A stretch of DNA of 64,000 nt, taken from positions 245-64,244 of the forward strand of contig SYLI01000021.1 of the NCBI GenBank assembly GCA_005809105.1, given 5' to 3'. The position numbers and the translations under genes were made by a program. Below the pieces are notes generated by a model. It was not told where the DNA came from and made no database searches. It worked only from the letters and a program-made list of their open reading frames with translations. Shown piece by piece: positions 12,200-13,102 of this stretch. The DNA is from Verrucomicrobiales bacterium (GTDB taxonomy: Bacteria; Verrucomicrobiota; Verrucomicrobiia; Limisphaerales; UBA1100). How positions within the stretch are numbered: the first letter of the stretch is position 1; every line of letters begins with the position of its first letter.

Positions 12200-13102
12200 G
12201 CGAAGCGGTCTCCTTCCTTCTGATCGGCCTCCCACTTGAGCCGTTGAATCGAGAGCTTGGTATGCGACTCGTCGAGTTCGATGCCGACGCAGTGACGCTT
12301 GGTGCGGACCGCCGTAACAGCGGTGGTACCGCCGCCCAAGAATGGGTCTAGCACCAAGTCGCCCTCTTTGGTGGAAGCGAGGATGCATCGCTCAATCAGC
12401 GCAACTGGCTTCTGCGTGGGGTGTTTGCCTAAACTTTTTTCGGGGGGGGGGGGGGTAAAATCGCCAGACGGTTTTCATCTGTTTCCCTGTGACACTTTTC
12501 ATTTCCTGGTAGTTGAAAAGGTGTTTGCTCTTCTCGTTCCTAGCGGTCCAGATGACCGTCTCGGTGGAATGGGTGAAGTAGCGGCAGGAGAGATTGGGCG
12601 GCGGGTTTGGCTTTTCCCAAGTGATGTCGTTCAGGATCTTGAAGCCGAGCTGCTGCATCGCATAGCCTATCGAGAGAATGACGTGGTGCGTGCCGCTGAC
12701 CCAGATGGTGCCGTTGGGCTTGAGGACGCGTTGGCAGCGGCGGAGCCATTCGAGGTTGAATTCATGGTTGAGTTCTGGCCCGCGCGACTTGTCCCAGGCG
12801 CCCTTGTCCACCTTCACCATCTTCCCGCCGTGGCAAGTGATGCCGCCGTTGGAAAGGAAGTAGGGCGGGTCGGCAAAAATCATGTCGAAGCGCCCCCCGG
12901 GATACTCGGCGTAAATGGCATCGAGCAGTTCGAGGCAGTTGCCGTGGTAAAGCCAGACGCCGCAGGCGTCGTCGTGATAGACGAGATTGGGTGGTGAAGA
13001 CGCGTCGTTGGGACTATCACCATCCGGATGAGCCGCAGGCTTCGCAGGAGCGGGGCGTGTGATGCGTCCGCGCTCACTGCGGCGAGTGGCTTTCTTCGGC
13101 AC
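12196..13102 (-). pseudogene. Beta-class (motif IV before motif I) DNA N6-adenine/N4-cytosine methyltransferase, frameshifted in a C14 (coding-strand) homopolymer; phase-variable gene or assembly error
   Basis: The N-terminal part (track ORF 12392..13102) carries FADPPYF (motif IV). After the tract, the +1 frame reads [42 protein letters not shown]...* (HPTQKP plus AdoMet motif FxGxG) and ends at the TGA at 12196-12198. A tract of 13 or 16 C would give one 301/302-aa protein. Confidence 0.8.
12442..12455. repeat. G14 homopolymer (C14 on the coding strand) inside the methyltransferase gene
   Basis: Counted directly: 12441 c, 12442-12455 g x14, 12456 t. It is the longest homopolymer I saw in the window. 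Confidence 0.95.

Follow-up and report, generated by a model that had tools for sequence, protein, structure and literature searches.

A length-variable poly-C tract in the methyltransferase gene of an environmental Type II restriction-modification pair as a candidate slipped-strand switch

Introduction

Does an uncultured environmental bacterium carry, inside a DNA methyltransferase gene, a repeat that turns the enzyme on and off? This question is raised by a run of 14 cytosines in a predicted Type II restriction-modification (R-M) operon of the Verrucomicrobiales assembly GCA_005809105.1. We analyzed a 64-kb stretch of its contig SYLI01000021.1 (positions 245 to 64,244), which is referred to below as the window and to which coordinates refer unless another sequence is named. 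The run interrupts the methyltransferase gene, here called M, which overlaps the gene of a putative restriction endonuclease, here called R. From the comparisons described below we conclude, with moderate confidence, that the run is a conserved slipped-strand contingency tract that would switch M between a full-length form (at lengths of 3n+1) and a truncated form. Tract slippage drives the switching of contingency loci in Campylobacter, Neisseria, Haemophilus and Helicobacter (PMC5909438; PMC4889913). Repeat-driven R-M switching is viewed chiefly as a strategy of host-adapted pathogens with small genomes, and the cases that involve methyltransferases belong mainly to Type I and Type III systems. 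Mononucleotide G/C tracts of the length found here slip at rates that are orders of magnitude above those of base substitution.

Results

Tract length sets the reading frame of M

M is encoded on the minus strand, and the plus strand at the tract reads TTTTTC-G14-TAAAATC, with the G14 at exactly 12442-12455. The open reading frame (ORF) found in the window runs from a GTG at 13102 to a stop at 12392 (12392-13102, minus strand) and encodes 236 amino acids ending in ...KTVWRFYPPPPRKKFRQTPHAEASCAD*. It matches PF01555 from residue 73 onward and includes motif IV (FADPPYF) as well as the NPPPN region, after which the reading across the tract continues as ...KQMKTVWRFY-PPPP-RKKFRQTPHAEASCAD*, where RKKFRQTPHAEASCAD is a 16-residue out-of-frame tail. 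The 3' segment of the gene (12196-12441, minus strand), consisting of 81 codons and a TGA, lies in the +1 frame, encodes the FxGxG motif that binds S-adenosylmethionine (AdoMet), and is joined to the 5' part only at 13 or 16 C. When the tract was set to 13 or 16 C in silico, a single ORF of 301 or 302 residues resulted, with a PPPP or PPPPP loop and the TGA at 12196-12198 as its stop, while 12 or 15 C gave a product ending in ...PPPP(P)KKV*. The truncated products contain 223 (12 C), 236 (14 C) and 224 (15 C) residues and all lack the AdoMet site: because the FxGxG half lies 3' of the tract, any out-of-frame length removes the cofactor-binding half of M. The number of repeats in this ORF thus toggles between a full-length and a truncated product. 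The original prediction had described the frameshift by the G14, the stop at 12392, the +1 frame leading to the TGA and the ATGA overlap with the downstream gene, and all of these sequence statements are correct. Its expectation that a 3n+1 tract would give an intact enzyme of about 301 residues likewise agrees with the in silico lengths and with an existing 13-C allele (P0124, 301 residues).

With 14 units, the tract exceeds the approximately 8 units from which intragenic G/C repeats are considered slippable. It is the longest homopolymer of the window, the runners-up being a G9 and a T9. Under a model of independent, identically distributed bases (64-kb window, 64% GC), 0.011 G/C runs of at least 14 are expected, while G/C runs of at least 7 are depleted, with 5 observed against about 31 expected.

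Near-identical assemblies differ in tract length

To the 90%-identity cluster of the truncated M protein belong products of 236, 301, 224, 224 and 223 residues together with a 52-residue C-terminal fragment, and the sizes of these products are those predicted for 14, 13, 15, 15 and 12 C. We collected copies of the locus from the contigs that encode the proteins of this cluster, compared each with the window in an alignment of about 12.7 kb, and added two short contigs through the invariant R. The eight complete copies have tracts of 12, 13, 13, 13, 14, 14, 15 and 15 C. M is in frame (ON) in the three copies with 13 C (L001, GCA_005800055.1; L002, ERZ27257032; and L022, the 1.5-kb contig SXGU01184956.1, which begins 31 nt ahead of the tract), all of which encode the intact 301-residue protein. 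It is out of frame (OFF) in the window and in L006 (GCA_005777705.1) with 14 C, in L003 (ERZ27257033) and L004 (ERZ27257034) with 15 C, and in L005 (ERZ27257035) with 12 C. One further, incomplete copy, a contig of the Logan assembly of SRR8894381 (L023), begins within the tract and retains 14 C; this contig end is what a branch of the assembly graph at the tract would yield.

Over the approximately 12.7 kb shared by the window and L001-L006, the alignment contains five columns with single-nucleotide polymorphisms (SNPs), and the tract is its sole indel site. M and R carry no other indel or stop in any of the eight complete copies. The length of the tract is decoupled from the SNP background, since the SNP at 13812 is present in both L004 (15 C) and L006 (14 C) but absent from the window (14 C). 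Two other homopolymers served as controls for stability. An in-frame G9 in ftsZ (59772-59780; gene 59698-60873, plus strand), which encodes the glycines of the GVGGGGG tubulin signature, lies in a protein that is identical on 11 contigs of the population, and an A8 in the aligned region is invariant. The repeat therefore varies between near-identical genomes, with the caveat that each length is the consensus of a metagenome assembly to which technical effects may have contributed. For users of such assemblies there is also a practical warning: in most of them, gene callers split M into fragments of 236 and 52 residues.

Three side observations were made on other genes of the same assemblies. 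A PQQ_2 beta-propeller gene (locus 2178/2358-3647) is annotated with 489 residues in L001 and L002 versus 429 in L003-L006, and an AhpC/Redoxin gene (locus 12207/12404) with 776 versus 711 residues in the same two sets; the DNA is identical in both cases, and the differences are due to the start sites chosen by the gene callers. The T9 run (60945-60953), which is located close to the 5' end of a gene of the CNNM/CBS/CorC_HlyC type (60898-62121, plus strand) and codes for ...AAFFFALA..., has the same length in the one other assembly that was compared at the DNA level (L013).

Diverged homologues carry the tract at the same loop

Among the 120 best M homologues (60-85% identity), nearly all have an eight-residue loop of the TMTAPGGD type after ...KQMKTVW and only a few have poly-proline at this position, while many carry insertions of 20-80 residues in this loop. 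Insertions of this size mean that additional or missing prolines should be tolerated. They are found in P0025, P0046, P0058, P0083, P0113 and others, and some are internally repetitive (...SPVTCHLSP...PVTCHVSPVT...). Judged from the aligned proteins, the loop that holds the tract is a hotspot of length variation for the whole M family.

Pure runs of 14 or 15 C are present at this loop in five diverged homologues, two of them in frame and three out of frame. The in-frame sequences are L007 (Logan SRR30276809; 76% amino acid identity), which reads TTA-C14-G GAG, and L012 (ERZ27280328), which reads TTA-C15-GAA. Two of the out-of-frame sequences, L008 (JGI Ga0169931, an 87-kb contig) and L010 (SXGR01538883.1), have C14 where 3n is needed; both were found by a pattern scan for at least nine C followed by GARAAR-N6-GGNAARCAYCCNACNCARAARCC. 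The third, L011, has an out-of-frame C14 and lies at 5851-7302 of OZ241383.1, the chromosome of an Acidimicrobiales metagenome-assembled genome (MAG), where an M that is 51% identical is accompanied by a nuclease of the MutH/MvaI_BcnI type. The ORF of this nuclease is apparently split over two frames, and indel errors in the OZ241383.1 assembly are possible. The repeat is thus kept in homologues, in which both ON and OFF alleles occur.

A related allele is found in the P0057 lineage (L024 and L025; JGI 3300009502 and ERZ18625568), where the tract region (L024, 852-866) reads TTA CCC CCC CCC TCC CCC GAA, an in-frame 15-mer of the form C9-T-C5. Here the run is broken by a single C-to-T change (Pro to Ser), the DNA being identical in the two contigs and an identical protein being encoded by a third; this looks like a stabilised, 'locked-on' allele of the tract. 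We also considered that the tract is always exactly 14 nt long outside the population of the window, as L007-L011 suggested, and this idea was abandoned because of L012 (C15) and L024 (C9-T-C5). One of these sequences, L009 (OGCL01019607.1, 2036 bp; 384-429), has a C14 followed by a good C-terminal methyltransferase frame. What precedes the C14 is unrelated, however, and further downstream the reading degenerates after a short distance; the contig is probably chimeric, with its join at the homopolymer. A search for more poly-proline alleles with a 40-residue peptide centred on the loop collected four candidates, returned three fragments and was uninformative.

The purity of the tract is not matched by other proline codons of the gene. 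Depending on the lineage, the prolines of the invariant NPPPN motif are encoded by CCG CCG CCC, CCA CCG CCC, CCG CCA CCC, CCG CCG CCG or CCT CCG CCA, and in the flanking genes only 45% of the prolines are encoded by CCC. These controls argue against the purity of the tract being an accident of codon usage. Likewise, a run of six prolines in the N-terminal extension of L008 (11738-12550, minus strand) is encoded by CCG CCA CCA CCG CCA CCG, so that poly-proline in the M family does not by itself create a homopolymer. In a rough neighbour-joining tree, which is star-like and carries no support values, the tract alleles are scattered among tract-less relatives with loops such as RILPPSNG, QFYPPARD or RFYAPKGV. 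Together with the actinobacterial case, this tree suggests that the tract probably originated, or was lost, more than once.

Homologues of both genes were also found in Neisseria gonorrhoeae (NZ_CP119140.1, 8442-13970; L017; filed as a 'plasmid' of 2.17 Mb) beside a gene of the DpnI/Dam-replacing family. There the M gene is split and has the loop VWTFPPPNKTEK with no tract, and the R ORF, 59.7% identical to the R of the window, is truncated at 151 residues. Both genes appear to be pseudogenes.

Both genes evolve under constraint

We compared the ratio of nonsynonymous to synonymous substitution rates (dN/dS) between five tract-bearing lineages that share the same endonuclease. Synonymous divergence (dS) between these lineages ranges from about 0.2 to above 1.9, which is beyond saturation in some pairs. 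The dN/dS ratios are 0.05-0.21 for the N-terminal core of M, 0.12-0.32 for the 81 codons 3' of the tract and 0.02-0.24 for R. These values indicate that R and M, including the segment of M that is untranslated in OFF alleles, are maintained by purifying selection, and they imply that the homopolymer was retained while heavy divergence accumulated at synonymous sites.

M resembles beta-class N6-adenine methyltransferases

The M protein with the frame repaired matches Pfam PF01555 (N6_N4_Mtase) with 193 bits over residues 73-284, and its nearest solved structures are those of CcrM (6pbd, E = 4e-50) and DpnA (5hek). Motif IV, FADPPYF, which is of the N6-adenine type, is encoded 5' of the tract, and HPTQKP and DPFLGGGTT (AdoMet-binding motif I) are encoded 3' of it. 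With PF01555 and with the order DPPY ... HPTQKP ... FxGxG, M thus resembles CcrM, M.HinfI and DpnA (PDB 6pbd, 5hek). It differs from CcrM in that it lacks the C-terminal domain of CcrM, is paired with an endonuclease and carries the tract at the loop position that 'PLCTGEERIKGADGQKA' occupies in CcrM. An assignment as CcrM itself was rejected, as M scores 212 bits against the 830-bit cut-off of the NCBIfam equivalog, covers only positions 7-250 of the 350 of the profile and has an endonuclease partner. The family match, the DPPY and FxGxG motifs and the pairing support the view that M is a beta-class N6-adenine DNA methyltransferase of a Type II R-M pair. The designation as a Type II pair is based on the sequence features of the two genes and on their conserved synteny.

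R is a putative endonuclease and overlaps M

R (11666-12199, minus strand) encodes 177 residues with a PD...E-x-K motif (LLPDDALLVIVRETLFIIEVK). Its score against PF20472 (PDDEXK_11) is 25.4 bits and so lies just above the gathering cut-off of 23.7, and the signature P-D ... E-x-K (LLPDD...IIEVK) is invariant across 24 aligned R homologues. An AlphaFold2 model of R (mean predicted local distance difference test score 79) gave weak Foldseek matches (E 0.008 or worse), most of which, including the best, are PD-(D/E)XK nucleases: BstEII, XisH, BspD6I, BsoBI and MUS81. No sequence relative of R was found in the PDB, and among the 5858 R homologues obtained by sequence search none has a functional name, any that are named being called 'hypothetical', and no characterised orthologue was found. 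Several of these homologues come from MAGs of Verrucomicrobiae or Verrucomicrobiota. All 10 contigs on which R is present encode the identical protein. As the pairing with M is conserved in five lineages, R is a putative PD-(D/E)XK endonuclease partner of M, an assignment that leans on the invariant motif, the marginal family match, the weak fold matches and the synteny.

The TGA of M (12196-12198) overlaps the ATG of R (12199-12197) in an ATGA (12196-12199, minus strand), and every tract-bearing lineage examined has either ATGA or GTGA at this junction. A sequence that resembles a Shine-Dalgarno (SD) site, AAGGAGA (12209-12215, minus strand), is located 10 nt 5' of the R start. Its GGAGA core is identical in five lineages and also serves as codons for a conserved Gly-Asp/Glu.

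The pair lies in a low-GC island

The M-R operon occupies an island (11654-13224) with 54-59% GC as compared to about 64% elsewhere, and is flanked by two paralogous-looking genes for Gfo/Idh/MocA oxidoreductases (10490-11653 and 13225-14310, both on the plus strand). Because a pair of 54-59% GC is embedded in a genome of 64% GC, the island fits a horizontal acquisition. Genes of the PSCyt1/PSCyt2/PSD1 and DUF1501 types are found next to the island, and the window also encodes FtsA and FtsZ at other positions. This gene content points to a Verrucomicrobiota-like organism and not to a planctomycete. Scans of the island for promoters, terminators and flanking repeats gave nothing above shuffled controls, and neither bounding repeats nor mobility genes were seen at the island. 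A search for the tract pattern in a collection of viral contigs, which would have pointed to carriage by phages, returned no match.

Discussion

How the tract would act

The data presented here are best accommodated by a contingency tract that acts through DNA slippage. Slipped-strand mispairing at replication would add or remove C:G pairs in a tract that is placed in an insertion-tolerant loop, between the N-terminal part with catalytic and target-recognition functions and the C-terminal part with HPTQKP and FxGxG. Lengths of 13 or 16 would then give the full enzyme of 301 or 302 residues, and other lengths would truncate it ahead of the cofactor site. The population is polymorphic for 12-15 C, the window representing an OFF consensus with 14 C. 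From what is established for G/C tracts of at least 8 we infer that switching in vivo is frequent and reversible. The original prediction of a phase-variation switch is supported by the polymorphism of tract length and by the conservation of the tract in diverged homologues. Of the two outcomes that it had named as refutations, a single in-frame length was not observed, as near-identical assemblies have 12, 13, 14 and 15 C, and neither was a fixed out-of-frame length with additional lesions, as both genes are free of other lesions and under purifying selection.

Several observations speak against this interpretation. All tract lengths are consensus values of metagenome assemblies (MEGAHIT-style k141 names, MAGs, Logan) that are apparently based on short reads. 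Both in library PCR and in sequencing, a G/C tract as long as this one slips, and some assemblies may come from shared read sets, so that they are possibly not independent observations. A published caution states that G-tract lengths in databases and annotations are unreliable and may differ from the true distributions (PMC9187656). Outside the population, five of the six tract-bearing loci (L007-L011, with L009 included) have exactly C14, a tight clustering that this interpretation does not explain. Furthermore, a cell with M in the OFF state beside an intact and separately translated R with its own SD-like site should be self-toxic. An RNA structure at the R start could have mitigated this problem, but folding of the single sequence gave z = +0.53 and hence no significant structure, and in the alignment fold the covariation term was positive, that is, unfavourable.

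Competing explanations

Part of these objections would be met if the length differences were technical noise, that is, if the real tract were fixed in frame at 13 C or another length with M constitutively ON, and 12, 14 and 15 C were errors of Illumina sequencing, library PCR or the assemblers. The consensus nature of every sequence and the published caution fit this explanation, and so do the short contigs that end at or beside the tract (SRR8894381, SXGU01184956.1), although the same breaks would also be expected from a truly variable tract; moreover, each out-of-frame length is at most 2 nt away from an in-frame one. However, 15 C, which is 2 nt longer than the in-frame 13, occurs in two separate long contigs, of 203 kb and 158 kb, which are distinguished by SNPs, out-of-frame lengths recur in lineages from other projects (L008, L010, L011), and with about 5 of 13 sequences in frame there is no majority and the fraction is near the random one third. 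Technical noise also leaves the purity of the tract unexplained, given that other proline runs of the gene use mixed codons. In addition, PCR stutter is biased towards contraction, and a G/C run of 13-15 nt is expected to slip in vivo at a high rate regardless of any sequencing noise. On balance, we consider a purely technical origin unlikely. Much less credible still is that the R-M island is a decaying pseudogene cluster in the course of being lost, with the frameshift as its first lesion. The frameshift in the window copy, the foreign GC content of the island and the fragmented homologous pair in Neisseria gonorrhoeae would agree with decay, but intact 13-C alleles exist in the same population, apart from the tract, M and R are free of indels and stops in all eight copies, 10 contigs encode the same R protein, and the dN/dS ratios of both genes stay well below 1, also in the segment 3' of the tract. 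We therefore regard decay as highly improbable.

A different solution to the self-toxicity problem would be recoding, in which slippage of RNA polymerase, of ribosomes on CCC-C, or of both would yield a low and roughly frame-independent amount of full-length M, and of R through the ATGA, so that a toxic pair is attenuated at a constant R:M ratio. Recoding would account for out-of-frame alleles at chance frequency despite purifying selection on R and on the segment 3' of the tract, and the conserved ATGA overlap would agree with it. RNA polymerase is documented to slip on long homopolymers (PMC1088944, PMC5009743), and tRNAPro to make +1 slips on CCC-C (PMC7577736, PMC4519876); exactly a +1 shift is what the 14-C allele needs. 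On the other hand, the shift required differs between alleles (-1 nt or +2 for the window, +1 or -2 for L008, L010 and L011, none for L007 and L012), so that homologues do not share the same shift and no single programmed event would serve them all. Moreover, some alleles are already in frame, among them the interrupted, 'locked' one, and variation is seen directly at the DNA level. Bacterial RNA-polymerase slippage, furthermore, is best documented for A/T runs and not for G/C runs. Recoding as the explanation of the tract thus seems doubtful to us, although it is compatible with a contingency tract and the two do not exclude each other. Slightly more doubtful is a version in which the tract is primarily a module for expression noise or attenuation: M would be produced mostly via slippage whatever the DNA length, the ATGA would feed R mainly from corrected messages, which would fix the R:M ratio and hold the pair at a low level, and DNA slippage would only modulate that level. 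If this were true, a widespread environmental family of Type II R-M systems would be regulated by recoding at a homopolymer.

OFF alleles and the endonuclease

Returning to the contingency tract as the preferred interpretation, the question is how OFF cells would survive. In-frame alleles account for 5 of the 13 complete sequences (about 60% being out of frame), which is near the one third expected for an unconstrained frame, and this nearly random distribution suggests that OFF genotypes are tolerated. Such tolerance requires that R is silenced together with M, that full-length M leaks from OFF alleles, or that the OFF calls are wrong. The premature stop precedes the start of R by about 195-230 nt. 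With the early stop of OFF alleles, coupled re-initiation through the ATGA overlap would be lost, and R output may fall together with that of M; polarity of the Rho type is an alternative route by which R could be lowered in OFF cells. Alternatively, full-length M may be made from OFF templates through RNA-polymerase slippage and +1/-1 slips on CCC-C codons. The original prediction proposed that the early stop would abolish translational coupling into R, so that the tract could gate both genes. The idea of such gating is weakened, and a loss of R translation through the early stop is not supported, considering the conserved GGAGA 10 nt upstream of the start and the lack of a sequestering RNA structure. 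Strict translational coupling by an RNA structure that hides the ribosome-binding site of R was accordingly rejected on the basis of both folds. The manner in which M-OFF cells survive next to an intact R could reveal controls of Type II systems that act through coupling, polarity or recoding.

Comparison with known systems

On the features tested here, the mechanism suggested by the sequences is that of a classical simple sequence repeat contingency locus. Phase-variable Type II genes are already known from Helicobacter, Neisseria and Campylobacter. A close parallel to the present architecture is the NlaIV Type II system of Neisseria gonorrhoeae, which also has a separate M and a PD-(D/E)XK R, and in which mononucleotide tracts within the ORFs, poly-T in nlaIV_E and poly-A in nlaIV_M, cause truncating frameshifts (bioRxiv 10.64898/2026.01.10.698759). 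In NlaIV, however, the functional switching takes place in the endonuclease and M is ON in almost all isolates, whereas here the tract is in M only and OFF alleles of M are common. The repeats also differ, being T or A runs of about 9 in NlaIV and C12-15 in the present, Verrucomicrobiota-like environmental host.

Phasevarions, which are defined for Type I and Type III systems (PMC12707154), resemble the locus in that an N6-adenine methyltransferase gene, Type III mod or Type I hsdM/hsdS, carries an intragenic repeat that is conserved across alleles, in some cases in environmental species (PMC5909438, PMC7383803, PMC12707154). The original prediction held that such a tract would be unusual in an environmental genome; this is correct in part, yet a published catalogue includes Type III mod genes of environmental species that contain repeat tracts (PMC5909438). 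There are two differences: restriction in Type I and Type III systems needs Mod or HsdM, so that M-OFF equals R-OFF, while R is a separate Type II enzyme here, and the protein family in the present case is the beta-class PF01555 family of CcrM/HinfI-like enzymes. As a phasevarion is defined by a regulon under the control of the methyltransferase, and because the Type I/III or orphan architecture in which M-OFF is harmless is replaced here by an M that is followed by a separate, intact R with its own SD-like site, the locus should not be classed as a phasevarion.

The Type IIG gene Cj0031 of Campylobacter jejuni likewise has a G/C homopolymer, a poly-G, that turns a Type II-class R-M gene ON and OFF by frameshifting (PMC4889913). 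It encodes a single fused R-M polypeptide, though, so that both activities switch jointly, and its host is a host-adapted pathogen with a small genome. A high-GC non-pathogen provides a further parallel: in Bifidobacterium breve, a G-tract of heterogeneous length splits genes for sortase-dependent pili in two ORFs (PMC9187656). The targets there are pilins and not R-M genes, and the switch was verified by error-corrected sequencing, whereas the present lengths are known from assembly consensus. Ancient poly(A)-tract frameshifts in insect endosymbionts, which Tamas in 2008 and Wernegreen in 2010 reportedly described, are said to be rescued by transcriptional slippage. They share with the tract in M that homopolymer frameshifts are long retained in genes under purifying selection, but they consist of A/T tracts with a fixed frameshift in AT-rich, reduced genomes, whereas the DNA length varies between near-identical genomes here. 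For comparison of lengths, tracts in Campylobacter are typically G8-G12.

What is new in the present case is thus the setting together with the comparative signal: a widespread environmental Type II family in which a tract in M, ahead of an overlapping and intact R, is polymorphic in natural populations and at the same time conserved over diverged lineages, one of them actinobacterial, with M next to another type of endonuclease. The locus extends the known picture of repeat-containing R-M systems to a classical Type II methyltransferase of an uncultured, Verrucomicrobiota-like environmental bacterium with a large, high-GC genome. If the variation is biological, free-living bacteria, like the host-adapted pathogens, would use tract switching as a hedge in defence or in the uptake of foreign DNA.

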